Shown here piece by piece: positions 29,865-45,622 of a stretch of 64,000 nt of DNA (positions are counted from its first letter, which is position 1; every line of letters begins with the position of its first letter). The translations under genes and the position numbers were made by a program. A model generated the notes under the pieces. That model was not told the origin of the DNA, did not search any database, and saw nothing but the letters and a program-made list of their open reading frames with translations. The stretch is from Candidatus Latescibacterota bacterium (GTDB lineage Bacteria > Latescibacterota > CBDEFO01), in contig OZ252149.1 in the NCBI GenBank assembly GCA_965248755.1, forward strand, positions 2,368,001 to 2,432,000. Direction: 5' to 3'.

Positions 29865-29891
29865 CATTTTGTATAGAGGATAGGGCTTGTA

Positions 29892-30364: not shown

Positions 30365-31315
30365 ATGTCCCGGGATTCGGAAGGTTTCCATGTACCTGTG
30401 ATGCCCAGAGAGGTCGTAGAGAGGATAGTAACCGACGCAAATGGAGTGTACGTTGACGCTACGGTCGGAGGAGGAGGGCACGCTGAGTCCATCTTGTCCG
30501 GGTTATCAAGGGGACGTCTAATCGGAATAGATCGGGATCCGGAGGCTATTGCAGCTTCCAGGTTAAAGCTTGACAGGTTTGAAAATAGGGTTGTCCTTTT
30601 CCAGACTGAGTTCTGGAATCTATCTAAAGTTCTCAAGTCAAACAGAATTGATGCGATCGATGGCATTCTGTTCGACTTAGGGGTCTCGTCACATCAGATA
30701 GATACTATGGAAAGGGGATTTAGTTATCGAGGTGACGGTCCCTTGAATATGAGGATGAGCCCTAATATCGGGCTAACGGCTGTAGATGTCTTAAACTCCT
30801 TTCGTTTGGAGGATTTAGTTCGCATATTCAGGGAGTACGGCCAGGAGAGATACGCGCGGAAGATCGCTCAGATAGTGTGTAGAGAAAGGAAGTTGAAGCG
30901 CATAGAAAGTACGCCTGATCTGAGGGAAATTGTAAGATCTGTTTTGCCGACTCAAAGGCATGTTCACAAGACGCTTGCGAGGGTGTTCCAAGCTATAAGG
31001 ATAGAGATTAACCAGGAACTTGTGAATCTGGAGAGTTCTCTGAGAACTGCCATAGATCTGCTTAAGACGAAACGCAGGATAGTCGTGATTTCGTATCACT
31101 CTCTGGAGGATAGAATAGTTAAATCACTGTTCAACGAGTACGTTAAGGGTTGTGTATGTCCGCCGGGTGTTCCGGTTTGCGCCTGCGGCCGAAAGAGCAT
31201 ACTTAATCTTGTTGATCGAAAGGCTATTTTCCCTTCGGCCCTTGAAGTGGAGAAAAATCCGAGAGCAAAAAGCGCAAGGTTAAGAGCAGCTGAGAAATTA
31301 AAGATAGACAGCTAA
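30365..31315 (+). CDS. rsmH: 16S rRNA m4C1402 methyltransferase RsmH
   Basis: HVPVM, VDATVGGGGH, DLGVSSHQ, SYHSLEDR, NPRAKSARLR. Confidence 0.96.
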   Translation: MSRDSEGFHVPVMPREVVERIVTDANGVYVDATVGGGGHAESILSGLSRGRLIGIDRDPEAIAASRLKLDRFENRVVLFQTEFWNLSKVLKSNRIDAIDGILFDLGVSSHQIDTMERGFSYRGDGPLNMRMSPNIGLTAVDVLNSFRLEDLVRIFREYGQERYARKIAQIVCRERKLKRIESTPDLREIVRSVLPTQRHVHKTLARVFQAIRIEINQELVNLESSLRTAIDLLKTKRRIVVISYHSLEDRIVKSLFNEYVKGCVCPPGVPVCACGRKSILNLVDRKAIFPSALEVEKNPRAKSARLRAAEKLKIDS

Positions 31316-31588
31316 ATCTCTATCCTAGTATGTTCAGAAGTAAAGATTAAGCTTGATCTAGTGTCAGTTTGAAGCTAATTCAGTCAAAAGGAGTTGGGTC
31401 GTCATCTCAATACCCATAGTTATCCCAAGGGACTACGAACGTTTTTGCAAATGGTTTCGTGCTTTTTATGTTTTTTAGGGAGCTTTTAAAGATTTGCCGA
31501 ATTAAGTTAACAAGGTTATTGGACTTTACCGAGGCACTTCGGTGAATTATAATCATGAAGTAAGGTCAAGTGTACTGATATTCTACCA

Positions 31589-31909
31589 GTGGCGGAGATA
31601 GGTGGAATGACCCATATAGGAAGAAGACATCGTCGTAGCTTTAGGTACACAAGGAATCTACTCTTCTTGATCGTACTTGTAGGAGGAATGGTAGGTCATA
31701 TTTGGCAGATGTCATCGGTCTCAGAGCTGTCCCAGCAGATTAAGGAGTTGAAGTCGGAAAAGGCGAGAGTAGCGGATAGAAATAGATATCGAAGAGCGGA
31801 ATTTGCAGAGCATACAGACATCAGAAGAATTGTAAAGATAGCCAGAGAAAAACTGGATATGATTTTGCCCCAGGGAACGCCGGTGGAGATCTTTGTGAAG
31901 GATAGATAG
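31589..31909 (+). CDS. ftsL: Cell division protein FtsL
   Basis: Basic N-terminus, single TM, coiled coil, RIVKIAREKLDM; between rsmH and ftsI. Confidence 0.8.
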   Translation: MAEIGGMTHIGRRHRRSFRYTRNLLFLIVLVGGMVGHIWQMSSVSELSQQIKELKSEKARVADRNRYRRAEFAEHTDIRRIVKIAREKLDMILPQGTPVEIFVKDR

Positions 31910-32092
31910 AAGCAAATGTGGCGACTATCCCCAATGAATCGTGGAGTTTCTCAGACAGCGCTCGCCAAAGGGGTGCCATGTTAGGGGCTGAAGGCTGCGC
32001 CCCAACTCGTAGTAGATGGTAGACAGGGCGTACATCCGCCCTGGCCCCGTCCACTTTACGCTGTCTAATGGGAGTCTCCCGCGTTAAATTCT

Positions 32093-33865
32093 ATGAAATA
32101 CAGGGAATACCACGTCAGGCTGAAGCTTATCCTCCTTTTGGGAGGGATTTTCTGGCTGGCGTTGGCCAGCAGACTCTTTTACATACAGGTTTGGAAGAGT
32201 GATTACTATACACAGCGTGCAAGACAACAGCACGAAAGGAGAATTACGATCAATGGTTTGCGAGGTCATATTCTGGACCGAGAGGGCGTCCAGCTTACGG
32301 CAAATCTGAGTTCTTATTCTCTGGCCGCCGATCCGTCAAGGGTTGAAGATAAGGACAAAAGGAAAATAGCTTACAGCATCTGTCGTGTCACAGGGGATGA
32401 ACCGTCGAGTTTTTTGAATCGGCTGTCGACGGAGCAGACTTTCGTTTGGCTGAAGAGAAACATTGACAAGATGTCCACAGATGAGATGGGGTTGGAGAAT
32501 GTTGCTGGTCTATATAAGTTTAAGGAGATGAAGCGGGTCTATCCACGGGGGACTTTAGCAGGACATCTCATAGGACATACTGATATTGATAGTAATGGAA
32601 TAGAGGCCGCAGAGCTAATGTATGAAGATTACCTTGGAGGGACACCGGGATGGATGGCCTTTCAAATAGACGGTCATGGTCAAACGCTACCTTATACGAT
32701 GGAGATTACAGAGCGTCCTCAGAACGGGAAAGATGTAGTGTTGACTATCGATGCAATCTATCAGGCAATAGCAGAGGATGAACTGCAAAGGACCGTGGAG
32801 AAGTACAACGCTAAGAGCGGAACGGTGGTCATTATGGCTCCCAAGACAGGAGAAATCTTAGCTATGGCTAATGTGCCCTTGTACAACCCGAACAGTCCAA
32901 GTTTGGAGTTTGCAAGGAATCGGGCTATTACAGATCTTTATGAACCCGGCTCAACGTTTAAAATAGTCGCCGCCGCGGCGGCTTTGGAAAGAGGAGTAAC
33001 AGGGCCTGAGGAAATGATTTTCTGTGAGAACGGGCAAATGGACATTCCAGGAGGGTTGATGCGCGATTCTCACAAGTATGGGTGGTTAAGCTTCAGGGAG
33101 GTAATAAGCAATTCCAGCAATATAGGGATGATCAAGGTGGCCCAGCAGTTAGGAGACGAATGGCTCTACAAATATGGAGTGATGTTCGGGTTCGGGAATA
33201 GAACAGGGATCGATCTGCCTGGAGAGGCAGGAGGCGTTTTAAGGAGTCCGTCCGAATGGTCTGGAAGGTCGTTGGCGTCTGTGACAATAGGTCAGGAGGT
33301 ATCGGTGACAGTCCTTCAGATGGCTACGGCCTATTCTGCCGTCGCAAACGGGGGATTACTTATGAGGCCATTCGTTCTAAAGTCAGTGGTGGATAGGGAC
33401 AAAAAAGTTATAAAAAAGACTAAGCCTCAAGCTATAAGAAGGATTATGTCCCAAGACAAGGCTCAAACGTTGACAGATCTATTACGAGAATGTGTCTTAA
33501 GAGGAACGGGAATCAAGGCTCAGATTGAAGGAGTAGATATTGCTGGAAAGACCGGGACAGCTCAAAGGCCTTCCGAACACAGACGGGGTTATGCTAAGGA
33601 TGAGTTCATAGCTTCGTTCGTAGGGTTCTTGCCTGCTGATGATCCCGAACTTGTTTGTATCGTGGTAGTTGACAGACCTGAAGGGGCGCACTGGGGTGGA
33701 GAGGTGGGGGCTCCGGCGTTCAAAAGGATTGTGGAACAGATCCTAAATTCGAGTAATCCGCCTGTTGAAATAGTACGGAGGGTGCCTTCCATAAATCCTG
33801 TGGCTGATGGGGAAGTTGAGGAGGATAGTAGACTGTCGGTGTTGACAGTTTACGGCGATAATTAG
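32093..33865 (+). CDS. ftsI: Class B penicillin-binding protein FtsI
   Basis: RGHILDR, EPGSTFK (SxxK), SSN, KTGTAQ. Confidence 0.93.
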   Translation: MKYREYHVRLKLILLLGGIFWLALASRLFYIQVWKSDYYTQRARQQHERRITINGLRGHILDREGVQLTANLSSYSLAADPSRVEDKDKRKIAYSICRVTGDEPSSFLNRLSTEQTFVWLKRNIDKMSTDEMGLENVAGLYKFKEMKRVYPRGTLAGHLIGHTDIDSNGIEAAELMYEDYLGGTPGWMAFQIDGHGQTLPYTMEITERPQNGKDVVLTIDAIYQAIAEDELQRTVEKYNAKSGTVVIMAPKTGEILAMANVPLYNPNSPSLEFARNRAITDLYEPGSTFKIVAAAAALERGVTGPEEMIFCENGQMDIPGGLMRDSHKYGWLSFREVISNSSNIGMIKVAQQLGDEWLYKYGVMFGFGNRTGIDLPGEAGGVLRSPSEWSGRSLASVTIGQEVSVTVLQMATAYSAVANGGLLMRPFVLKSVVDRDKKVIKKTKPQAIRRIMSQDKAQTLTDLLRECVLRGTGIKAQIEGVDIAGKTGTAQRPSEHRRGYAKDEFIASFVGFLPADDPELVCIVVVDRPEGAHWGGEVGAPAFKRIVEQILNSSNPPVEIVRRVPSINPVADGEVEEDSRLSVLTVYGDN

Positions 33866-33870
33866 AGAAG

Positions 33871-35349
33871 ATGAGACTTAAAGATCTCGTTGGACATCTG
33901 CCTCAGGCTCGGATATTGGGCGACGTTGGCCTGGACATATCCGCAATTGAATACGATACGAGGAGAAAGATCTCTCAAGGCACTCTGTTTGTGGCTTTTA
34001 GCGGGGAGAACTTCGACGGTCACGATTTTGTTGAGGATGCGGTAGCGTCCGGGGCTGTGGCTCTAGTGATCCAGAAAGATAGAAAGATCCAAAGGGGCGT
34101 TACGAAAATTGTGGTCGAAGACTCCCGAAGGGCGTTATCTCCTATTTCAAGCAGGTTCTACAACGAACCGTGGAAGAAATTGAGGGTCATAGGCGTCACG
34201 GGCACCAACGGAAAGACCACTGTGTCAATGCTGGTGAAGTCTATAATGGAGGCTGGAGGCTTAAAAACGGGCCTTATAGGGACTGTAAATTACGTCGTTG
34301 GTAATAGGGTAACGGGGGCGTTGACCACCACGCCTGAGTCTTTGGATCTTCAAAGGATGTTGGGACAGATGGTCGAAAGCAGACAGAGGGCTGTTTCGTT
34401 GGAGGTGTCGTCGCACGGGCTGGCTTTAGGCAAAACAGAAGGTGTGGGGTTTGACACAGCGATCTTTACGAATTTCAGCAGGGATCATCTGGATTTTCAC
34501 AAGAGCTTTGAGGACTATTTCGAGGCTAAGGTCTCACTGTTTGAAAGCTTGGGGAGATATAAAGAGGGCAGGGCTGTGATAAATATGGACGATCCGATGG
34601 GAGAAACGATTTTAGATCGTATTGATGTTCCGGCTATTACTTACGGTCTCTCAAAGAAGACACAAGTGTGGGGGCAGAATGTCAGGATGGACTCTCGGGG
34701 CATCGAACTTGGAGTTTGTACTCCTATCGGACCAGTGGATCTCAGGATGAAGTTGAGGAGCAGATTCAACGTGATGAATACGCTTGCGGCTATAGGGGCT
34801 GGAATATCCGAAGAGCTCGATATGGGGCAGATAAAAGCCGGTTTGGAGTCAATAGAGGGTATTCCGGGAAGGTTTGAAGCTGTAGATTGCGGTCAGGATT
34901 TCACGGTCATCGTGGACTATGCACATACGCCTGACGCTCTGGAAAACGTTCTCAAGGCTGCAAGGAAAATCACATCGGGCAGGCTTATATCCCTGTTCGG
35001 GTGTGGGGGAGACAGGGACAAGGGCAAGCGTCCCCAGATGGCTCGTATCTCCACTACGATATGCGACGTGACTTACATTACATCTGACAACCCGAGGACG
35101 GAGGATCCGGAGGTCATAATTGGGGATGTTATTGCGGGGGTGAGGCCGAACGGCGTTTATAAGACCATAACTGATAGGAGAGAAGCCATAGAGGAGATGT
35201 TGAGAAAGGCAGAAAGTGGGGATGTAGTGGTTATCGCGGGGAAAGGGCACGAAAATTATCAGATAATAGGAACAAAAAGGATGCACTTTGACGACAGGAA
35301 GGTTATAAGGGAAATATTGAGTAAGTGGACAGTAGATAGTAGACAATAG
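33871..35349 (+). CDS. murE: UDP-MurNAc-tripeptide synthetase MurE (meso-DAP type)
   Basis: GTNGKTT, DYAHTPD, DNPR, AGKGHE. Confidence 0.96.
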   Translation: MRLKDLVGHLPQARILGDVGLDISAIEYDTRRKISQGTLFVAFSGENFDGHDFVEDAVASGAVALVIQKDRKIQRGVTKIVVEDSRRALSPISSRFYNEPWKKLRVIGVTGTNGKTTVSMLVKSIMEAGGLKTGLIGTVNYVVGNRVTGALTTTPESLDLQRMLGQMVESRQRAVSLEVSSHGLALGKTEGVGFDTAIFTNFSRDHLDFHKSFEDYFEAKVSLFESLGRYKEGRAVINMDDPMGETILDRIDVPAITYGLSKKTQVWGQNVRMDSRGIELGVCTPIGPVDLRMKLRSRFNVMNTLAAIGAGISEELDMGQIKAGLESIEGIPGRFEAVDCGQDFTVIVDYAHTPDALENVLKAARKITSGRLISLFGCGGDRDKGKRPQMARISTTICDVTYITSDNPRTEDPEVIIGDVIAGVRPNGVYKTITDRREAIEEMLRKAESGDVVVIAGKGHENYQIIGTKRMHFDDRKVIREILSKWTVDSRQ

Positions 35350-35358
35350 GCAGTTGAA
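35324..35358 (+). repeat. Degenerate heptamer tandem repeat across the murE stop
   Basis: AGTGGAC AGTAGAT AGTAGAC AATAGGC AGTTGAA; complementary CTATCTACT about 20 nt downstream. Confidence 0.55.
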
Positions 35359-35718
35359 AACATCCCCACGAGCTATCTACTACTTACCATAGATTTAAGG
35401 GCGGTACTGTCCCACCCTTACGAACTCAGGAAACTTGATGGGATTACCAAATCTTGCTGCTTTGAGAGCTAAAGCTTGACCTTGCGCTTGAATGAGTGAA
35501 AAGGGGAGTCCTTGAGGGAGGGATTCTAAGAAAGATGATCAGTCAGTGCCAATGGTGCAATGCAGTAGCAAGAGAGGGCAAATGGGAGTCATATCCCCAT
35601 AAGATTGATCCTGATAATCCCTATTACTAGGGCCATAAGATCGACGCGAAAAGCGTGACTCGGTCAATTTGCGATGTTTGCAAGGACATTATTACCACGT
35701 TTAAGATCAACTCTAGAG

Positions 35719-37113
35719 ATGTTAGAGATAAGCTTAGAGGACATCTGTAAGGAAGTAGATGGCGAAACGGCAGAGGGAGTGGATGTATCTTTTTTAAGAA
35801 AGATACCCAAGGGCGTCTCGATAGATTCCCGGACTTCAAAGGAAGGGGAGGTTTTCTTCGCTATCAAGGGGAATAGGTTCGACGGGCACGACTTTATCGC
35901 TGATGCTTTCAAAAAGGACGCCTGTGGAGTCGTGGCTTCTCGGTCCTGGGTGGACGCTAATCGTTCAAAGATAGGCGATAGGTTCATAATCGGGGTTGCA
36001 GATACAATCTCAGCTTTGGGGTTGTTGGGAAGGAGCTATCGAAAGCGATTTTCGATCCCCACGGTAGCCGTGACGGGGACCGCTGGCAAGACAACCACGA
36101 AGGAAATGACGGCCGATGTCCTATCGTCGAAATACAGGGTTTTAAAAACACAGGGGAATTTGAACACAAAAATCGGTTTGCCTCTTACTATCTTCAATCT
36201 TTTGGATGAGCACGAAGTTGCTATTTTGGAGTTAGGTGCAACTGAGCCCGGCGGGATAACTAATCTCTGCCGAATAGCTGATCCGAACATAGGAATGATA
36301 ACAAACGTAGGGCCAGCTCATCTGGAGTTCTTCGGATCGCTGGAGAATGTCGCAGCCACTAAAGGGGAACTTTTAGAATATCTGGACAAATCGTCAACTA
36401 CTATCTTGAACTTCGATGATGATATTTTGGACAAGGAGAGAGATACGATAAAGGGGAGACTCCTTGGTTTCAGCATCGAAAGGGAAAGCCACTTTCGATG
36501 CAGAGAACTCAGATTTGACCGGAACGGGTGCGCGCAATTTTCACTTCTGGGAACACAGATTCAGTTGGCCCTGCCTGGAAAACACAGTGTCTATAACGCC
36601 CTGGGTGCCGCCGCTGTGGGAGACTATTTCGGGCTCGATATGGGGACTATTAAGATGGCTCTGGAGAATTTTCGCCCTTCACCTATGAGGATGAAACTGA
36701 TACATAAGAAGGGCGTGAAAGTCATTGACGATGCCTACAACTCCAATCCTCTCTCGTGCAAGGCGGCACTGGATACACTCTCCCGGATGGAAGTTGGTGT
36801 GGGAGGGCAAAGGATAGCTGTTTTGGGGGACATGTTGGAGATGGGGGAAAGGGGGCCAGACCTTCACAGGGAAGTGGGCAGGTACGCCGGGCTGTCCAAA
36901 GTAGATCGTCTTTTGGCGTTCGGACCTCTTTCTCTGGAGATCTGCATCGGAACTCTGGGGGAAGGGATGAGCAAGGAGAATGTCCAGCATTTTGAGGTTA
37001 AAGAGGCCTTAAGCTTGTATCTAAAGAACATCCTTAAAAAAGGAGATGTCGTTTTGATAAAGGGATCAAGAGGAATGAAGATGGAAGAGATTGTGAAGGA
37101 ACTGGATCTTTAG
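35719..37113 (+). CDS. murF: UDP-MurNAc-pentapeptide synthetase MurF
   Basis: SIDSR, TGTAGKTTTK, DDAYNSNP, LGDMLEMG, KGSRGM. Confidence 0.95.
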   Translation: MLEISLEDICKEVDGETAEGVDVSFLRKIPKGVSIDSRTSKEGEVFFAIKGNRFDGHDFIADAFKKDACGVVASRSWVDANRSKIGDRFIIGVADTISALGLLGRSYRKRFSIPTVAVTGTAGKTTTKEMTADVLSSKYRVLKTQGNLNTKIGLPLTIFNLLDEHEVAILELGATEPGGITNLCRIADPNIGMITNVGPAHLEFFGSLENVAATKGELLEYLDKSSTTILNFDDDILDKERDTIKGRLLGFSIERESHFRCRELRFDRNGCAQFSLLGTQIQLALPGKHSVYNALGAAAVGDYFGLDMGTIKMALENFRPSPMRMKLIHKKGVKVIDDAYNSNPLSCKAALDTLSRMEVGVGGQRIAVLGDMLEMGERGPDLHREVGRYAGLSKVDRLLAFGPLSLEICIGTLGEGMSKENVQHFEVKEALSLYLKNILKKGDVVLIKGSRGMKMEEIVKELDL

Positions 37114-37131
37114 TTTTTCGAAGGAGGAAGG

Positions 37132-38253
37132 TTGTTCTATCATCTGTTTTATCCCTTAAGAGATACTTTACCGGGATTCGGGATATTTAGGTTTATTAGC
37201 TTCAGGGCGGCCGGAGCGACGATAACTGCTCTTTTGATCAGTCTTGTTGTAGCTCCTTATGTCATAAGAAAGTTAAAGAGCTTTAAAGTGCAGCCGAAAG
37301 TAAGGGAAGATGGTCCTCCCGGGCACCTTGCTAAAGAGGGGACTCCTACGATGGGCGGGATAATTATCCTTTTGGCGATAACTATATCCACGCTCCTTTG
37401 GGCACGTTTGAATAACACCTATATCCTCATAGTTCTTTTCTCTACCCTGTGGCTCGGTGCAATCGGCTTTATTGACGATTATCTGGGGGCGGTAAAGAAG
37501 GTTCCTAAGGGCTTGATCGGAAGATATAAACTGGCAGGTCAGATGATTTTAGGCTTATCGATAGGGGTATTTCTATATGCGGTGTCCCTTTCCCCCGAAG
37601 AAGCAAGACTGGCGACTACAACTGAGCTCCCCTTCTTCAAAAATCATATCATAAACTTCGACTTTGAACTTTTTGGCCTCTCCTTCGGGTGGATATACAT
37701 TTTGTTTGTAGCTTTGGTGATCACAGGGACCTCCAACGCTGTGAATTTGACAGACGGACTGGATGGCCTTGCTGCAGGGCTTGTGGGGATAGCGTTCAGT
37801 GCCTTTGCGGTTATAGGATACATAGCAGGACGCGTTGATTTTACAGGATATTTGAATATATTATACCTTCCGGGCAGCGGAGAGTTGAGCGTATTCTGTC
37901 TGAGCGCAGTGGGAGGAGCCTTGGGTTTTTTGTGGTATAATTCTCCGCCTGCCAAGATCTGGATGGGGGATACGGGGGCTCTATCTTTGGGAGGTTCCTT
38001 GGGGACAGTGGCTATCTTGATAAAAAAGGAGCTCCTTTTACCTGTGATAGGGGGTATTTTTGTGGCGGAGGTGGTGTCAGTCATGCTTCAGGTGATTTCG
38101 TTCAAAAGGCGAGGCAAGCGCGTCTTTCTTATGGCTCCGATACATCATCACTTCGAATTAAAAGGCTGGACTGAGTCTCAGGTCATCGTCAGATTTTGGA
38201 TAATAGGCATCCTTCTTGCGCTGGTGGGTTTGAGCACCTTGAAGATACGATAA
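37132..38253 (+). CDS. mraY: Phospho-MurNAc-pentapeptide transferase MraY
   Basis: GTPTMGG, IDDY, NAVNLTDGLDG, MGDTG, APIHHHFE. Confidence 0.97.
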   Translation: MFYHLFYPLRDTLPGFGIFRFISFRAAGATITALLISLVVAPYVIRKLKSFKVQPKVREDGPPGHLAKEGTPTMGGIIILLAITISTLLWARLNNTYILIVLFSTLWLGAIGFIDDYLGAVKKVPKGLIGRYKLAGQMILGLSIGVFLYAVSLSPEEARLATTTELPFFKNHIINFDFELFGLSFGWIYILFVALVITGTSNAVNLTDGLDGLAAGLVGIAFSAFAVIGYIAGRVDFTGYLNILYLPGSGELSVFCLSAVGGALGFLWYNSPPAKIWMGDTGALSLGGSLGTVAILIKKELLLPVIGGIFVAEVVSVMLQVISFKRRGKRVFLMAPIHHHFELKGWTESQVIVRFWIIGILLALVGLSTLKIR

Positions 38254-38267
38254 GAACAGTAGACAGT

Positions 38268-38328
38268 AACCCCCGATAGATTCAATCGGGGGTCGGGGAT
38301 TGCTTGGGCGTTTCGCCCCTCGGAATGA
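38268..38328. repeat. Palindrome CCCCGAT-AGATTCA-ATCGGGG plus half of a REP-like element
   Basis: Same family as 25673-25693 and 25761-25810; followed by GGATTGCTT..CTCGGAATGA. Confidence 0.7.
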
Positions 38329-38389
38329 ATGAAGGTCGAAGCCGAGTAATGTCAATGGAACAGCACGAAGTAATCTTTCAGTTAGGCGG

Positions 38390-39544
38390 ATGGAAAAGGA
38401 AGACAGGACCGACAAACTTTTGATGTCTCTGACGTTGATTTTGGTGGGATTGGGACAGGTGTTTGTCTATAGTTCGAGCGCGGCTCTGGCAATGGAGAGG
38501 TTTGAAAGCAGCAGCTTTTTTCTGGAAAGGCAGGTAATAAGGACAGTAGTCGGGATAGCTTTTCTGTTGATAGTAAGAAGGATAGATTACAGGTTCTGGC
38601 TGAGGAATTCGAAAGTTGGGCTTTCATTTGGATTATTCGCACTTTTCGCGCTCTGTATCCATAAATTTTTTGTGGGAGGGGAGATAAATGGAGCCAGCCG
38701 GTGGGTAAGGGTGTCTTCGTGGGGCTCTTTTCAGCCTTCAGAGTTTATTAAGATCATACTTGTTATATATACAGCAGATGTTCTAGTCCGACGCCGAAGA
38801 TATATGGGGCACTTTTTCAAGGGACTCTTGCCCTATCTTATAGTTCTGACTTTTGCTTTGGGATTGATTGTAATTCAGCCGAATTTGGGGACGGCTGTGG
38901 CTATTGGTATAGTGGTCTCTATTCTACTGTTCGTAGGAGGCGCAAGGCTTTCACATCTGTTGGGTGTGGGGTTGGTGATCTTACCTGTTCTGTATCTGCT
39001 GATATATCAGGTAGATTACAGGAGAGACAGGATGCAGGCGTTTTTAAACAGTGCTCAAGATACAAAAGGAGTAAGTTATCAGATTGATCAGTCACTTCTG
39101 GGATTGGGAAGTGGTGGGATATTTGGACAGGGGTTCGGAAATAGCAAGCAGAAGTTGTTGTTTCTGCCGGAGCCGCACACTGATTTTGTGTTTTCTGTCG
39201 TGGGCGAGGAGTTAGGGCTTGTGGGGACAATGTTCGTGTTGTGTTTATTCGGAGTTTTTGTTATAAAAGGCATTCGGATCGCTAGAAACGCTCCGGACCT
39301 TGAGGGATTTCTCCTGGCTGTGGGGATGACAGCTGTAGTAGGGGTGTACGCGGCCATCAATATGGGAGTAGTCACAAATCTTCTTCCTACTACGGGACTG
39401 CCTCTGCCATTCGTCAGCTATGGGGGCTCTTCCTTAATCTCGATGATGATAGGCACAGGGATTCTGCTTAATATATACAGACAGAGCCACAGTGTAGAAG
39501 AGATGCGAATGGATCTTCGAAAGTCCGGTCCAAGATGGTGGTGA
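38390..39544 (+). CDS. ftsW: SEDS peptidoglycan polymerase FtsW
   Basis: GASRW, FQPSEF, LPEPHTDFVF, LPFVSYGGSS. Confidence 0.95.
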   Translation: MEKEDRTDKLLMSLTLILVGLGQVFVYSSSAALAMERFESSSFFLERQVIRTVVGIAFLLIVRRIDYRFWLRNSKVGLSFGLFALFALCIHKFFVGGEINGASRWVRVSSWGSFQPSEFIKIILVIYTADVLVRRRRYMGHFFKGLLPYLIVLTFALGLIVIQPNLGTAVAIGIVVSILLFVGGARLSHLLGVGLVILPVLYLLIYQVDYRRDRMQAFLNSAQDTKGVSYQIDQSLLGLGSGGIFGQGFGNSKQKLLFLPEPHTDFVFSVVGEELGLVGTMFVLCLFGVFVIKGIRIARNAPDLEGFLLAVGMTAVVGVYAAINMGVVTNLLPTTGLPLPFVSYGGSSLISMMIGTGILLNIYRQSHSVEEMRMDLRKSGPRWW

Positions 39545-40665
39545 GGGTCGCTATCGCAGGGGGTGGTACAGGTGGACATGTGTTTCCCGCTATAGCTATC
39601 GCTGATGAGATAAAAAGGAGAGAGCCCGAGACCGAAATTCTATTTGTGGGCACAAAAAGGGGTGTGGAGATGGGGACGGTTCCGCTGGCGGGCTATCGGA
39701 TAGTGACTATATCGGCTATGGGCTTCAGAAGACAGGCTTCTCTTGATACAATCAAGTTCCCGTTCGTAGTCTTTACAGGACTTTTGGAGGCCATAGCGAT
39801 CCTGAGGCGATTCAGGCCATCCTTAGCTGTGGGCACAGGAGGATATGTGAGCGGTCCGGTGATCTTGGCGGCTTATCTCTTGAGACTGCCCTGTGTAATT
39901 CACGAGCAGAATATCTATCCTGGCCTCACAACAAGGCTCCTTTCGAGGATAGCGCGGCAAGTGCATCTTTCGTATCTGAAGTCCGCGGAATATTTCAAGA
40001 GAACGGACAACCTGATTCTAAGTGGAAATCCGACACGGCAGGAATTGAACTCGATAGATAAGAAAGAGGCGAGGAGGATTCTGGGTCTGGATGAGGAGAA
40101 GAGGACGGTCATAGTCTTCGGGGGGAGCCAGGGAGCGCACAGCATCAATATGGCTTTGATAGAGGCTCTAGACGGGCTCTCGGAAGTGGAGGACCTCCAG
40201 ATAATATGGCAGACGGGGAAGAAAGACTACAGCCACGTGAAGAAAGAAGTGACTTCAAGAAAAGTGCCCGTAGTGGTTAGGTACTTTATACACAACATGG
40301 TAGAGGCCTTAGGGGCTGCAGATCTTGCAGTGACTCGCGCAGGTGGGATGACCATAGCAGATCTTAATCGGTGTGGACTACCGGCCATACTTATACCTCT
40401 TCCGTCCGCCGCGGCAAATCATCAGCAGAAGAACGCTGAGTCCATGGTCAGGTTCGGTGCGGCGAGCCTTATCCTGGACGAGGATCTTAGCGGAGAGAGG
40501 CTCGAAAAGGAGATTTTGTATCTCTTGAGCGATAGAAGTTCTTTGGAGGGCATGGAAAAAAAAAGCAAGATGTTGGCAGAGCCGGAGGCGGCACGTAAGA
40601 TCGTGGATTCGATATACGAGGCGGGGTTGATAAAGCAACATGATCACATTCAAACGCAGGATTAA
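39535..40665 (+). CDS. murG: MurG glycosyltransferase
   Basis: GGGTGGHVFP, GGYVS, HEQN, GGSQGA, RAGG, HQQKNA. Confidence 0.96.
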   Translation: MVVRVAIAGGGTGGHVFPAIAIADEIKRREPETEILFVGTKRGVEMGTVPLAGYRIVTISAMGFRRQASLDTIKFPFVVFTGLLEAIAILRRFRPSLAVGTGGYVSGPVILAAYLLRLPCVIHEQNIYPGLTTRLLSRIARQVHLSYLKSAEYFKRTDNLILSGNPTRQELNSIDKKEARRILGLDEEKRTVIVFGGSQGAHSINMALIEALDGLSEVEDLQIIWQTGKKDYSHVKKEVTSRKVPVVVRYFIHNMVEALGAADLAVTRAGGMTIADLNRCGLPAILIPLPSAAANHQQKNAESMVRFGAASLILDEDLSGERLEKEILYLLSDRSSLEGMEKKSKMLAEPEAARKIVDSIYEAGLIKQHDHIQTQD

Positions 40666-40697
40666 GATCTTGCATCAAAAGCGGGGCTTGTAGAGCA

Positions 40698-42092
40698 ATG
40701 CTCCGGGCAATTAAGAGCGTCCATTTTGTGGGCATAGGCGGAGCGGGAATGAGTGGGATTGCACAGGTGATCTTGGAGATGGGATGCGCTGTTTCGGGGT
40801 CGGATCTGAAAAGAACAGAAATAACGGATAGGTTGGAATCACAGGGGGCTGCAGTCTTTGAGGGACACAGGGCTTCCAACATAGGAGATGCCGATGTTGT
40901 TGTCTTTTCGTCCGCGGTTCCGCTTTGCAATCCTGAAATAGAGGAGGCGCAAAAAAGGGGAATACCGATCCTGCATAGAGCGGAGATGTTGAATTGGCTG
41001 ATGGAGGGCAAAAAAAGTATAGGGATAGCGGGGACACACGGAAAGACTACTGTGTCGGCCATGATAGCTCTTATACTGTTGGAGGGCGGATTTGATCCGA
41101 CTGTGGTAATTGGAGGACAGATCCAGAATCTCGGAACAAACGCGTGGCTTGGAAGTCGAACACCGAAGCCGTCTGGAGAATGGATGGTGGTCGAGGCAGA
41201 TGAGTTCGACAGATCATTCTTAAAGCTTTATCCGACTTTTTGCGTCTTGACTTCGATAGATTTAGAGCACCTGGACTCTTACCGGGACATAGGCCAGATC
41301 AAATCGGCTTTTTTGGAGTACACCAGTAGGATCTCTAAAGATGGTTGGGTAATCCTTTGCGCAGATGATAAGAATCTATTGGATATTGCATCCCAGATCG
41401 GAAGCAGGATCGTGACGTACGGCATATCAGAAGGTAATGACTTTCGGGCAAAGAATGTCCGAGTGCGTGGATTCGAGGCTGATTTCGGTCTGGAGGTGAG
41501 GGGTGCGGATATGGGAGATATTCATATAGGTCATCCGGGGGTTCACAATGTAAGAAACGCTCTGGGAGCTATAGCTGTAGGTTTTGAGGTGAAGATAGAC
41601 TTCGATACGATAAGAGGATCGCTTGAGGGTTTTCAAGGAGTCAGTCGGCGATTCGAACATAAAGGGCAAATAGCAGGGATAACAGTAGTGGATGACTATG
41701 CTCATCATCCCACAGAGATAAAAGCTGCATTAGGGTGCGCTAAAGACACGGGGGCAGCAAGGGTGGTAGCTGTTTTTCAACCTCACCTCTACAGCAGGAC
41801 TTTGAAGCTGTGCCAGGACTTCGGACCGGCTTTCCAGGATGCCCATATAGCGGTTATAACTGACATATACACGGCAAGAGAGGAGCCGATAGAAGGAGTA
41901 AACGGGGAACTGATAGTTGATTATGCAAGGTCTTCCGGTCATCGTTCGATTATGTACATTGACGATAAGGACGAGATACCATATAGGTTGATGGAGATTG
42001 TAAGGCCGGGGGACCTTGTCATAACCCTGGGTGCAGGAGACATCGGTTCAGTAGCGGAGGGACTGTTGGATTTACTGAGCAATAAGGTATAG
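40698..42092 (+). CDS. murC: UDP-MurNAc--L-alanine ligase MurC
   Basis: GIGGAGMSG, GTHGKTT, EADE, DDYAHHPTE, FQPH. Confidence 0.96.
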   Translation: MLRAIKSVHFVGIGGAGMSGIAQVILEMGCAVSGSDLKRTEITDRLESQGAAVFEGHRASNIGDADVVVFSSAVPLCNPEIEEAQKRGIPILHRAEMLNWLMEGKKSIGIAGTHGKTTVSAMIALILLEGGFDPTVVIGGQIQNLGTNAWLGSRTPKPSGEWMVVEADEFDRSFLKLYPTFCVLTSIDLEHLDSYRDIGQIKSAFLEYTSRISKDGWVILCADDKNLLDIASQIGSRIVTYGISEGNDFRAKNVRVRGFEADFGLEVRGADMGDIHIGHPGVHNVRNALGAIAVGFEVKIDFDTIRGSLEGFQGVSRRFEHKGQIAGITVVDDYAHHPTEIKAALGCAKDTGAARVVAVFQPHLYSRTLKLCQDFGPAFQDAHIAVITDIYTAREEPIEGVNGELIVDYARSSGHRSIMYIDDKDEIPYRLMEIVRPGDLVITLGAGDIGSVAEGLLDLLSNKV

Positions 42093-42115
42093 AAGTCCCG
42101 GAGACTTTTAGGTTT

Positions 42116-42973
42116 ATGAATCTTGGTCAAAGGATATATACAAAGAAACAGACGATGGCGCGTCGGGATAAGAAGGGATACAAGATCCCGAAGCCGGGGA
42201 TAGGCAGGAAGGACTCTGCTATATATAGTGTGCGGCGGCATGCCCGTAGGAAGCTCATTTTGATTCTCTTTGCGGCTTTTATTGGCATAAGCGGGATTTT
42301 GAAGCTGAAATCTTATGTGTTGAAATCGTCCTTTTTCAAGGTGGACACGATCAAAGTCGAGAGAAATCGGCTTTTGACAGATTATGAAGTTATCATGTGT
42401 GCAGGGATAGAGGAGGGGAAAGATATCTTCGATATTGATCTTGAGGAAGCTGCGGCCAAAGTAGAGAGTCATTCGATGGTAAAAAGGGCGGGGGTATCTG
42501 TTAAGCTTCCCAGCACTGTCGTAATATCGTTGGAAGAGCGGGAGACGATAGCGTTTTTGGATTTGGACGGGCTCTATCCGGTGGATGCAGAAGGAGTGCT
42601 ACTTCCAGAGATGGACATTTTAGATCTCCCTGATATCCCAATACTTACAGGGATAAAAGACAAGAACTACATGGTTAGTGAACGGCTTTCCTCTGCAAAG
42701 CTTGTGCAGGGCATAAAGTTTGTTGAGGAGCTCAAAAGGGCAGACCCGCTGATGCTGAGTCAGATTTCAAAGATAAGGGTGGAAAGCCCCCAGAGAGTTG
42801 TGTTTTACCTTGTGGGAGACGAGATTGAGGTGAGGGGAAAATGGGATGATGTGGAAAGTCAAGCGAAGAGTTTAAGGGCTCTGCTTGAATATCTACAGAT
42901 TGACTATTTAGAGAGACCTGTCTATGTAGATTTGACATTTAAAGGACGGATTGTCGCAGGATGGAGATCATAG
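42116..42973 (+). CDS. ftsQ: Cell division protein FtsQ/DivIB
   Basis: Basic N-terminus, TM, POTRA-like region, YVDLTF; precedes ftsA. Confidence 0.85.
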   Translation: MNLGQRIYTKKQTMARRDKKGYKIPKPGIGRKDSAIYSVRRHARRKLILILFAAFIGISGILKLKSYVLKSSFFKVDTIKVERNRLLTDYEVIMCAGIEEGKDIFDIDLEEAAAKVESHSMVKRAGVSVKLPSTVVISLEERETIAFLDLDGLYPVDAEGVLLPEMDILDLPDIPILTGIKDKNYMVSERLSSAKLVQGIKFVEELKRADPLMLSQISKIRVESPQRVVFYLVGDEIEVRGKWDDVESQAKSLRALLEYLQIDYLERPVYVDLTFKGRIVAGWRS

Positions 42974-42997
42974 TTCTAAAGGAGAGGGGGAAGAAGA

Positions 42998-44239
42998 ATG
43001 GCGAAGGGTGAGATGATCGTCGGCCTTGACATAGGCACGACGAAGATATGTGGCATAATAGCCGAGGTGGATCAGGGAGGCGATCTGAAAATAATCGGGG
43101 TGGGGAATAGCTCCTCGGATGGCTTGAGGCGCGGCGTAGTAGTAAACGTGGACAAGACGGTTCATTCGATTGAAAAGGCAGTAAGGGAAGCTGAATTGAT
43201 GGCTGGGGTGAAGGTGTCTTCTGCTTATGTGGGGATAGCGGGAGATCACATTCGCAGTTTTAACAGCAGGGGTGTGGTGGCTGTGACTGGGAACGACAAT
43301 GAGATAACACAGACAGACGTGAACCGGGTGATAGATCATGCCAAGGCTATAGCGATACCGATAGACAGGGAGATCATACACGTTGTTCCTCAGGAGTTCA
43401 TAGTAGATGATCAGTCAGGGGTGAAAGATCCTGTGGGGATATCGGGTATAAGGCTCGAGGCGGAAGTGCACATTGTGACAGGTGCTGTGGCTTCAGCGCA
43501 GAATATCGTTAAGAGCGTAAGGAGGGCGGGGATGGAGGTTATGGACGTGGTATTAGAGCCCTTAGCTTCGAGCTGTGCAGTACTGTCCGAAGATGAGAAA
43601 GAGATCGGCGTTGGGGTTTTGGACGTGGGAGGAGGTACTACGGATATAGCCATATTTTTTGAAGGGGGCATAAGGCATACCAGCGTCATTGGCTTGGGTG
43701 GACAGAACGTTACGAACGACATAGCTATAGGCTTGAGAACCGCCTGGGGCCAGGCAGAGGAGATAAAGCTGGAATATGGATGCGCTTCTTTGGACGAGGT
43801 GGAAAACGGTGAGACTATAAACGTACCTGGCATCGGAGGTCGTCCGCCGCACGAGGTACCCGGGGTGGAATTAGTGTCTATAATTGAACCGAGGATGCAG
43901 GAGATATTCACTCTTGCTCTGGAAGACATAAAGAAGAATTGGAATTACACGAATGTTCTGGCTTCAGGGATCGTGCTTACGGGCGGAGGTTCTATGCTCA
44001 AGGGTTCTTTAGAGCTTGCAAGCAAGGTGTTCGATATGCCGACAAGGCAGGGAGTTCCCCAAAGGATAACCGGGTTGGTGGATGAGGTTAAGAGTCCTAT
44101 GTACTCGACCGGGGTCGGACTTGTGTTGTACGGGTTTGAGAACTTAGGGACAGAGGGAGCAATGGTGGGCGTCAGGGGAGATGGACTATTTGATGCGATA
44201 TTTGTTAGGATGAAAGAATGGTTGAAAGAGTTTTTCTAA
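42998..44239 (+). CDS. ftsA: Cell division protein FtsA
   Basis: GLDIGTTK, DVGGGTTD, VLTGGGS, C-terminal amphipathic helix MKEWLKEFF. Confidence 0.97.
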   Translation: MAKGEMIVGLDIGTTKICGIIAEVDQGGDLKIIGVGNSSSDGLRRGVVVNVDKTVHSIEKAVREAELMAGVKVSSAYVGIAGDHIRSFNSRGVVAVTGNDNEITQTDVNRVIDHAKAIAIPIDREIIHVVPQEFIVDDQSGVKDPVGISGIRLEAEVHIVTGAVASAQNIVKSVRRAGMEVMDVVLEPLASSCAVLSEDEKEIGVGVLDVGGGTTDIAIFFEGGIRHTSVIGLGGQNVTNDIAIGLRTAWGQAEEIKLEYGCASLDEVENGETINVPGIGGRPPHEVPGVELVSIIEPRMQEIFTLALEDIKKNWNYTNVLASGIVLTGGGSMLKGSLELASKVFDMPTRQGVPQRITGLVDEVKSPMYSTGVGLVLYGFENLGTEGAMVGVRGDGLFDAIFVRMKEWLKEFF

Positions 44240-44455
44240 GTTTTCAGTAAGGTTAATAGTCAAGGGGAATCTAACTTCAGAAAGGGGGAAGGCGCATTCC
44301 TCTCCCGCATAAATGAAGTAGATAGCATCTCGCGATTGAACTCCCAACTGAATCTGTTGGGGGTCGGGCGTAGACAGGACACCTCCTCCACTACCTGTGC
44401 TGTCTACTATACACTGTCTACTTATTTAATGTGGGAGTCGCCTGCGCTAAATTCT

Positions 44456-45622
44456 ATGAATTTTGTAATCGCAGATAGCGGCGTGCGGGCTAAGATGAAA
44501 GTGGTGGGGGTGGGGGGAGCGGGCGGAAACGCTGTAAATAGGATGGTAACAGCCGGGCTTAAAGGAGTTGAGTTTATAGCTATCAACACAGATCATCAGG
44601 TCTTGGAGCCGTCCCTGGCAGACAAGAAGGTGCAGATCGGGAACAATGTGACAAGGGGGCTAGGGGTGGGAGCAAAGCCGGACGTGGGGAGACAGGCAAT
44701 AGAGGAAGACAGGGATCAGGTAGCCGATGGGCTTGCCGACGCGGACCTGGTCTTTGTGACAGCTGGGATGGGGGGTGGAACAGGGACAGGGGCGTCTCCT
44801 GTGGTGGCCGAGATAGCCAGGCATTTAGGGGCTTTAACGATTGGGATTGTGACATTGCCGTTTGTGTGCGAGGGAAAGACGAGGATGAAATACGCTCATG
44901 ATGGGATCGCCAATTTAAAGGAAAAGGTGGATACTCTGATAGCTATACCCAATGAGAAGCTCCTGTCTATAACGGCTAAGGATACGCCTCTTCAGGAAGC
45001 CTTCAGGATGGCGGATGACGTGTTGCTTCAGGCTACCAAGGGAATTTCGGATCTAATCGCTTATTCAGGGATCATCAACCTGGATTTTTCGGATGTGAAG
45101 ACGGTTATGTCTGAAGGAGGGGATGCTTTGATGGGGACAGGGTGCGCGGGTGGAGAAACAAGGGCTGAAGAAGCAGCGGAAAGGGCTATAAAGAACCCGC
45201 TTTTGGAAGATGTTTCGATTGAGGGGGCAAAGGCTGTCCTTGTTAATATTTCGGGCAGCAGCAATTTAACTTTGCACGAGACTACCGCCGCTACAATGGT
45301 AATTAACGAGGCTGTCGGGGATGACGCTGAGATCATCCTAGGGGCGGTAATAGATGAGGCCCTTGGGGATGAGGTAAGAGTCACGGTCATCGCCACGGGA
45401 TTCAACAAGACAGAAAACAAGGATAGGTCGGCAGAAGTACAGATAGGTGACCTCCCGCATCAAAGATCTCGTTCTATGGAACTTCCGACTTATATAAGAA
45501 AGAGCCGGCAGGCCTCGGAATTAGAACAGGAAAATGAGAAGGTGGTAGAGGAAGAAGCAGCAAACGACTTGGATTTGGATAAATTAGATTACCCCACATT
45601 TATGAGAAAAAAAATGGTATAG
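44456..45622 (+). CDS. ftsZ: Cell division protein FtsZ
   Basis: [29 protein letters not shown]-terminal LDYPTFMRK; start assigned to ATG 44456. Confidence 0.97.

Follow-up and report, generated by a model that had tools for sequence, protein, structure and literature searches.

A start-codon motif shared by ftsI and ftsZ in a Latescibacterota genome: probable relic of an IS200/IS605 left end and candidate split translation initiation site

Introduction

Why do two cell division genes begin with nearly the same 29 nucleotides (nt)? The question is raised by ftsI and ftsZ of Candidatus Latescibacterota bacterium, both of which lie in the window analyzed here, a stretch of 64,000 nt (contig OZ252149.1, positions 2,368,001 to 2,432,000). 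The overall best explanation, to which we assign a probability of roughly 0.7, is that the shared motif is a relic of the left end of an insertion sequence (IS) of the IS200/IS605 family, and that this end's Shine-Dalgarno (SD) sequence together with its hairpin would now form a split site for translation initiation. An earlier note on the window had offered, among other ideas, a mobile leader that supplies the start codon. The mobile part of that idea stands, in that the motif would be an IS200/IS605 terminus. The ATG, however, belongs to the host as its target site; the element contributes the SD and the hairpin. In the following, G000 denotes the genome under study (4.54 Mb) and G001 its sister genome, which is about 97% identical; coordinates refer to the window unless prefixed.

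Results

Three copies of the 29-mer, all on start codons

The 29-mers of ftsI (32069-32097) and ftsZ (44432-44460) are identical at 26 of 29 positions and stand in register with the ATG of either gene (32093 and 44456), just as the earlier note described. This likeness lies beyond chance (blastn of the 29-mer against the 4.54-Mb genome, E 0.001-0.002). The genome-wide motif search added a third copy (G000:C1:3417786-3417814(-)), which has a 1-nt insertion and coincides with the ATG start of a BNR-repeat gene; alignments of this gene with its homologues begin at residue 1. All three genomic copies are located on start codons. Apart from these, the 4.54-Mb genome contains no site with 6 or fewer mismatches, and a profile built from the three copies scores them at 33-34 bits, the next genomic site reaching 17.8. 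When 168 genomes were searched, the 29-mer was found only in G001, plus one chance match. An exact 22-nt pattern matched five times in genome contigs, three matches being those of the sister genome and two lacking the architecture described below, and had no match in viral contigs. The check on relatives that the earlier note had suggested speaks against its regulatory reading: ftsZ and ftsI of other families of the phylum are without the motif, and the 166 genomes outside the genus gave a single chance match, which lies within a reading frame on the opposite strand.

The gene upstream of the third copy (L162:1617-2777; G000:C1:3418016-3419176, minus strand) has a methionine-synthase-type look and a frameshift near its 3′ end. 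The BNR-repeat gene itself aligns only partially in G001.

Homology to the left ends of IS200/IS605 elements

Read on the other strand, the 29-mer is, very probably as judged from sequence homology, the target motif TTCAT (ATGAA on the coding strand) joined to the terminal 24 nt of an IS200/IS605 left end. This assignment follows from homologous ends found beside tnpA and tnpB genes together with a published target, TTCAT being a wild-type target motif of a Geobacillus stearothermophilus ISGst TnpB (bioRxiv 10.1101/2023.03.14.532601). Conservation between unrelated genes, which extends to unpaired positions, would then arise because the copies are siblings of one element.

On a Pseudodesulfovibrio plasmid, 5 nt separate the homologous unit from the end of an annotated IS200/IS605 tnpA; on Thermus plasmids, an M. 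avium plasmid and a viral contig, the unit directly precedes the start of an opposite-strand tnpB. On a further Thermus plasmid and in Thermus phage MN1 it adjoins genes annotated as 'transposase', whose N-termini match that of TnpB, and TnpB remnants lie beside it in two other Latescibacterota (G141 and G146). A Bifidobacterium match did not yield the unit when profiled. In all eight named or viral transposase-adjacent loci where the profile found the unit, an ATG stands 6-10 nt behind the stem. On the tnpB strand, CAT is present in 10 of 10 rows (TCAT in seven, CCAT in three), and the complete TTCAT occurs at ftsI, ftsZ, Thermus and G141. The viral unit L416, identical to the 29-mers of ftsZ and ftsI at 25 and 24 of 29 positions, respectively, is an unexpanded version of the ftsZ unit and precedes a 291-amino-acid (aa) open reading frame (ORF) without a linear SD.

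Profiles trained on outside members lead back to the same sites. Based on 13 members of the families f13, f7 and f14, the 5′-half profile placed the third copy first and ftsZ second among 9,081,350 positions, and the 3′-half profile of the same members gave ranks of 2nd, 8th and, for ftsI, 114th. A subterminal imperfect hairpin is present near the end, although at ftsI just its 3′ arm is recognizable, and a GGNGA purine stretch is conserved at the hairpin foot (in the IS200/IS605 family a DNA guide pairs with the target motif). The copies in this genome are relics and not complete IS200/IS605 elements. Before the IS origin was adopted, the arms had been considered derivatives of the GTAGACAGGG repeat, an idea with weak support: p was 0.005 or less for 2 of 8 5′ arms.

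Some single ends deserve mention. Two congeners, G146 (L394) and G141 (L391), have near-identical left ends. That of G146 coincides with the start of a glucan phosphorylase gene and has a truncated tnpB next to it; that of G141 lies on an ATG followed by 18 open codons, and the tnpB next to it is longer. Behind the IS end of L412 (Thermus phage MN1, LC754405.1), the ATG begins a hydrophobic ORF of 71 aa that lacks an annotation and may be a real gene.

Architecture of the ftsZ leader

The features at ftsZ are as follows.

42998..44239, plus strand: ftsA, named from its sequence and the gene order; its homologue adjoins ftsZ in kin
44262..44269, plus strand: second SD-like stretch AAGGGGAA, possibly the displaced original SD of ftsZ
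44279..44288, plus strand: extended SD AGAAAGGGGG, −15.4 kcal/mol with the genome's own 16S tail, 167 nt from the ftsZ ATG
44291..44308, plus strand: putative 5′ arm of the hairpin at the IS end, with closing stem, pyrimidine loop and CTCCC stem, from its profile rank and homology to the tnpB-adjacent end L392
44343..44421, no strand: loop-enlarging modules, with a genome-wide palindrome (44343-44361) and GTAGAC/GTCTAC modules (44370-44421)
44432..44455, minus strand: putative IS200/IS605 left end (its terminal 24 nt), which on the plus strand comprises the 3′ arm (44433-44448) and then a 7-nt spacer
44456..44460, minus strand: putative target motif TTCAT, which is ATGAA at the ftsZ start
44456..45622, plus strand: ftsZ, 388 aa

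Within this leader of 216 nt (that of ftsI measures 183 nt) the order is AGAAAGGGGG, 2 nt, a stem-loop of 158 nt, 7 nt and the ATG, the 3′ arm being the first part of the 29-mer; the third copy is laid out as at ftsZ, with distal SD, hairpin, spacer and ATG. The 16S rRNA tail of this genome ends CACCUCCUUUCU, to which AGAAAGGGGG is an almost perfect complement, and no start codon follows AGAAAGGGGG within 3-15 nt. At the normal SD distance ftsZ itself offers +1.0 kcal/mol, that is, no linear SD, whereas 28 of 28 ftsZ loci of the phylum have one of −9.8 or stronger. Its start agrees with that of its kin, as the best-SD starts of the kin fall −21 to +3 nt from it in all 28 phylum loci. If 44279-44455 is removed in a reconstruction, AAGGGGAA (−7.4 kcal/mol) comes to lie about 10 nt from the ATG, in the manner of an ordinary SD.

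GGGAG does lie 18 nt from the ATG, as had been noted, but the pairing then proposed for it, with ACTCCC at 44340, gives way to one with CTCCC at 44302-44306 in the fold. In short windows the closing stem has a probability of 0.93-1.0. With the SD and the start region held open, it forms in six of eight leaders (probability 0.68-1.0). Comparison of G001 with G000 shows identical SDs and closing-stem arms in the three leaders and differences in their interiors; at ftsZ all three differences lie in the loop modules. Contigs of four sequencing runs were uninformative, having no joints and just the three loop changes known from G001. A metagenome scan with FtsZ (80 loci) returned no relative above 65% identity. 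ftsA, the leader and ftsZ share one frame that is interrupted only by the ftsA stop, with 72 open codons in the leader.

The ftsI leader

The corresponding features at ftsI are given below.

31589..31909, plus strand: ftsL (DivIC family), with its TAG stop 5 nt before the 5′ arm of the ftsI leader
31906..32094, plus strand: ftsI leader, with imperfect inverted ends at both borders and without SD
31916..31984, plus strand: upstream ORF of 22 codons, beginning 6 nt past the ftsL stop, read from the G000/G001 alignments
32019..32067, no strand: GTAGACAG...CTGTCTA module of a genome-wide intergenic repeat family, inside the ftsI leader
32069..32092, minus strand: putative IS200/IS605 left end (its terminal 24 nt), forming the first part of the ftsI 29-mer
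32093..32097, minus strand: putative target motif TTCAT, which is ATGAA at the ftsI start
32093..33865, plus strand: ftsI, 590 aa, with penicillin-binding protein dimerisation and transpeptidase domains

The terminal 24 nt at ftsI are identical at 15-16 of 24-26 positions to four of the five transposase-adjacent ends tested. No SD was found within 15 nt of the arm, the best duplex there reaching −3.1 kcal/mol. With the insert taken out in a reconstruction, ftsI and ftsL are left with a 4-nt stop/start overlap, the commonest junction of this genome (94 cases). Translation of ftsI probably either is coupled to the stop codon of ftsL or needs no SD, which is the weakest step of our account, and split-site initiation at this gene appears doubtful. 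The 22-codon upstream ORF is probably not a functional peptide, judging from the G001 changes, which are non-synonymous in three of three cases.

The ends of the ftsI leader are imperfect inverted repeats of each other, possibly with a duplication of 2 nt. Elements of the IS200/IS605 family have neither terminal inverted repeats nor target-site duplications. Reading the leader as a miniature inverted-repeat transposable element, with terminal inverted repeats and a 2-nt duplication, fits ftsI but not ftsZ or the intact ends, and was rejected. Likewise dropped was the view that the differences between ftsI and ftsZ are compensatory: the 5′ region of ftsI pairs better with the arm of ftsZ (−19.4) than with its own (−16.7).

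ftsL and ftsI (within 30365-33865) likewise share a frame, and their leader contains two further stops. FtsI has 590 aa with these two domains only, whereas the open frames of completely matching kin span 659-891 codons; a C-terminal part may have been lost here.

Repeat modules in the loops

The earlier note had also pointed to inner elements common to both leaders. Both do carry the GTAGACAG...CTGTCTA stem, but these elements are not specific to the two genes: GTAGACAG occurs 677 times in the genome (482 times between genes) and TTGAATCTAT 247 times, so that they are genome-wide repeats. About 319 intergenic GTAGAC/GTCTAC clusters were counted in G000, of which 266 lie between co-oriented genes. 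That the palindrome family descends from IS200/IS605 hairpins is a guess. A RAYT (Y1) transposase was found in neither of the two genomes (G000, G001).

Members of the family before other genes

Shorter units precede atpD, genes for a TraR/DksA-like protein, an isochorismatase and an HpcH aldolase, and two genes for large unknown proteins. Homologous units stand before genes of BNR-repeat, TraR/DksA-like, HpcH aldolase, DegT aminotransferase, SDR, LysE, extracytoplasmic function sigma factor and phosphorylase types. The TraR-like gene has no linear SD here, in contrast to 24 of 28 kin with one at −6 or stronger.

The DegT gene provides a series of filled and empty sites. Its orthologues in genus g25 keep the succession of SD, stem, spacer and ATG in 15 of 15 cases, whereas those of sister genera (3 of 3) have a plain SD at a distance of 8 nt from the ATG. 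Protein identity across the 15 species of g25 is down to 88-95%. The SD, the stem and the length of the spacer have been preserved in all of them, while the loop and the upstream flank vary. The sequence upstream has already diverged between filled and empty sites, which bears on the matter of target-site duplication. A covariance model built from the 15 g25 loci alone identified further members, both in this genome (42.8 bits) and within the families f7, f13 and f14. Over 18 members, 91% of cells are paired and 8 of 12 pairs show a double change, which 0-1 of 500 shuffles equalled, in an alignment that was fitted to the model.

Other searches returned little. The 5′-half pattern gave 12 loci outside the genus, of which one was real, a whole unit in another family, before the DegT gene that led to the g25 series. 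Among 168 genomes the 3′-half pattern had six matches outside G000, G001 and G064, none with the unit (one unclear), and one further in-frame match inside a G000 gene. A second copy sought by pattern in five f13 genomes did not appear among 30 of the 42 matches. The long ftsZ and ftsI leaders were not found whole with model R1 (best 12.6 bits). Rfam recognized only two tRNAs in the window and had no match at E 1 in nine loci. Scans for promoters (23 vs 18.1) and terminators (11 vs 12.6) were at chance.

Discussion

A model for insertion, retention and split-site initiation

In the model that we favor, elements would have inserted independently at ftsI, at ftsZ and at at least four other genes of the genus (that of the third copy, the TraR-like and HpcH genes and the gene at 2152594); atpD and two more would be weaker cases. 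Since the target YCAT reads ATGR on the other strand, some of these insertions would fall exactly before a start codon. The transposase genes would have been lost afterwards while the ends remained, and local repeats would later have invaded the loop at ftsZ, ftsI and the third copy. Each IS end would bring an SD 1-4 nt 5′ of its hairpin and a spacer of 6-10 nt 3′ of it. Once folded, the hairpin would carry the SD to about 9-11 nt from the AUG (at ftsZ from 167 to about 9 nt), and the 30S subunit would initiate across the looped-out RNA, 158 nt at ftsZ. Because a split site of this kind would keep the displaced gene translated, ends on real starts would be retained. For ftsZ we hold split-site initiation, as modeled, with moderate confidence.

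The comparison of young with orphan ends agrees with a scheme in which elements insert at any YCAT and their ends are retained wherever they have come to serve a gene as its ribosome-binding site. An outward-facing SD-like stretch of −13.5 kcal/mol or stronger is present in six of eight intact ends. An ORF of at least 100 aa behind the ATG was found at one of eight independent transposase-adjacent ends, compared with nine of 12 orphan ends (Fisher p 0.02). Orphan ends were covariance-model matches at E 0.1 or less, taken without any ORF rule; training rows, sister-genome duplicates and two tnpB-adjacent matches were left out, and 11 of the 12 were checked for a nearby transposase.

Several observations weigh against this model. 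As to the origin, neither PF01797 nor PF07282, hence neither tnpA nor tnpB, was detected in G000 and G001, and tblastn of six transposase queries against G000 gave no match at E 0.01. No right end was recognized in the 90 nt beyond the SD of eight copies, which were inspected by eye without a right-end model; the exact cleavage point is inferred only, and one of the transposase-adjacent ends (L410) lies under an annotated tnpA. The 5′ half at ftsI is not recognizable as an IS end, as it ranks 33,624th with the profile, and 57% of random stretches score equally well against intact ends. The ORF of G074 has no Pfam match.

Other objections concern function. With 60 nt of coding sequence included, the closing stem of ftsZ falls to a probability of 0.00-0.06, because its 3′ arm pairs with the early coding region, and it returns to 0.92-0.99 only when the mRNA is held open to +30. 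At ftsI the probability is 0.07, and the SD is absent. Within g25 a double change is seen in one of 12 pairs; the stem is mostly invariant, and this weak covariation is equally expected under plain inheritance. The sets of young and orphan ends are small and were not drawn at random. Unbiased genome scans for an SD, a hairpin and an ATG in succession revealed no general excess (44 vs 41 and 38; 9 vs 3 and 6), so this would be a matter of a handful of genes and not a general mode of initiation. The strict rule by which five of five top matches lay on starts had been tuned on those very cases.

Much of this would also suit a relic of the same transposon origin that is inert for translation, with ftsZ and ftsI initiating without SD by way of an A/U-rich spacer, S1 or reinitiation after ftsA or ftsL, and with ends that persist merely since their precise loss is rare. 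No fewer than 655 of 2,494 called ATG starts lack an SD of −6 kcal/mol (crude gene calls), weak SDs precede ftsI in many kin, and the closing stem, marginal at ftsZ, is missing at ftsI. As the SD-like stretch is already present in intact elements, selection for the host gene is not required to account for it. We nevertheless regard an inert relic as unlikely in view of the DegT series, in which SD, stem and spacer length outlast the drift of the protein in all 15 species, of the strong SDs in all 28 kin ftsZ, and of the ftsZ insert, which has expanded and is still closed by paired arms. It is improbable that the relic was exapted as a translational switch with two states, one in which the pyrimidine tract of the 5′ arm or the U-rich spacer sequesters the SD and one in which the SD is bridged to the AUG, tuned by temperature, by coupling to the upstream gene or by a protein. 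Alternative folds that hide the SD or the AUG are indeed predicted for ftsZ, the third copy, atpD and the TraR-like gene, and the g25 consensus allows a 4-pair helix of SD and spacer; the downstream genes, however, have no function in common, intact transposon ends carry the same tracts, and Rfam has no match.

A cis-regulatory RNA or protein-binding site coordinating ftsI and ftsZ, the other proposal of the earlier note, now seems very improbable. That two of the three closest copies sit in the division and cell wall (dcw) cluster, 12 kb apart, would suit it and remains unexplained, but the third copy and other members precede unrelated genes, the kin genes are without the motif, and the sequence is that of a transposon end. 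Equally unexplained are the five substitution sites among the six copies of G000 and G001, all of which are synonymous in the ATG frame. Together with the open frame between ftsA and ftsZ, they are what could be said for a motif that is translated into an N-terminal peptide (WESPALNS), hopped over by the ribosome or excised as an intron-like piece. We give this next to no credence, given the TAA directly before the frame at ftsI, the stop (G001) or frameshift (G000) at the third copy, and a peptide that is not kept in other members.

Relation to known systems

The IS200/IS605 relic with split-site initiation, our preferred explanation, combines things that are each already known, namely IS200/IS605 ends, PATEs and split initiation sites; their combination is new within the literature covered. 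That literature, for the most part judged from titles and abstracts and with subscription journals largely outside the search, held nothing on IS605 ends docking on start codons or giving a split SD. IS608 is the paradigm named for IS200/IS605 (bioRxiv 10.1101/2023.03.14.532601). In the parts examined of the same preprint, the ISGst target motifs are sites of both insertion and cleavage that pair with a guide in the subterminal end, and start codons are not mentioned as targets (bioRxiv 10.1101/2023.03.14.532601). The units described here resemble ISGst1-5 and the gene-less PATEs reported there in their subterminal hairpin, in the target motif that abuts the left end and in having homologous ends beside tnpA/tnpB. 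Unlike them, the left end alone is recognized here, there is no transposase, the relics sit on the starts of essential genes with an SD that faces outward, and the loop is swollen by repeats.

For phage T4 genes 38 and 25, the account consulted reports tests of a stem that shortens the distance between SD and AUG from 22 to 5 nt and from 27 to 11 nt (PMC3014915). The only SD of ftsZ is likewise too distant from its AUG (−15.4 kcal/mol at 167 nt), while ftsI has none. In contrast to T4, the shortening from 167 to about 9 nt at ftsZ is a prediction only, and the insert is far larger, portable and transposon-born. The loop modules, for their part, are short, palindromic, intergenic, GTAG-tagged and present in hundreds of copies, as are the GTAG- and CGTC-tagged repetitive extragenic palindromes (REPs) (PMC3733652); they differ from GTAG REPs in that they fill the loop only, are distinct from the 29-mer and have no Y1/RAYT transposase in G000 or G001.

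New in the present case are ftsZ and ftsI as hosts, the swollen loop of 158 nt, the series of 15 species with filled sites alongside empty sister sites, and the contrast between young ends and relics. An apparent regulatory motif turns out to be, in all probability, a transposon scar, which annotation based on motifs would misread as co-regulation. Self-splicing IStrons are one way for IS200/IS605 elements to occupy genes harmlessly; if the split site works, it would be a second way to sit harmlessly in essential operons, and transposon ends would have been domesticated as translation signals for ftsZ. Going further, a whole IS200/IS605 branch may practice such 'harmless docking', in which a target complementary to the start codon and an outward extended SD would prevent the silencing of ftsZ, ftsI or atpD, the host would then become dependent on the relic, its ribosomes would initiate across a looped-out domain of about 160 nt, and this domain could keep absorbing repeats; for this we would offer slightly less than even odds. 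The ftsZ leader would then also provide a direct test of the size of RNA domain that the 30S subunit tolerates between SD and AUG, and the g25 series (15 filled, three empty) and the unexpanded viral unit form a set of natural variants for that test.

Other features of the region and the genome

The dcw cluster continues at 33871-40665 with murE, murF, mraY, ftsW and murG. No murD-sized ORF lies between mraY and ftsW in this cluster, the only one inspected; a repeat-filled gap of 137 nt is found where it would be. The gap between murE and murF (35350-35673, 324 nt) contains GGGAGTC about 75 nt before the murF ATG, which has no clear SD, and possibly holds another decayed end. Upstream of mraZ, GAGTGGGATAAAGTGGG is located at 29870-29891; we take it to resemble the direct repeats bound by MraZ. 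Elsewhere in the genome, a multicopy element (at least 15 copies; e.g. G000:C1 1283106, 2599595 and 2915027) has a GTG followed by 104 open codons and, 5 nt ahead of this GTG, a perfect extended SD.

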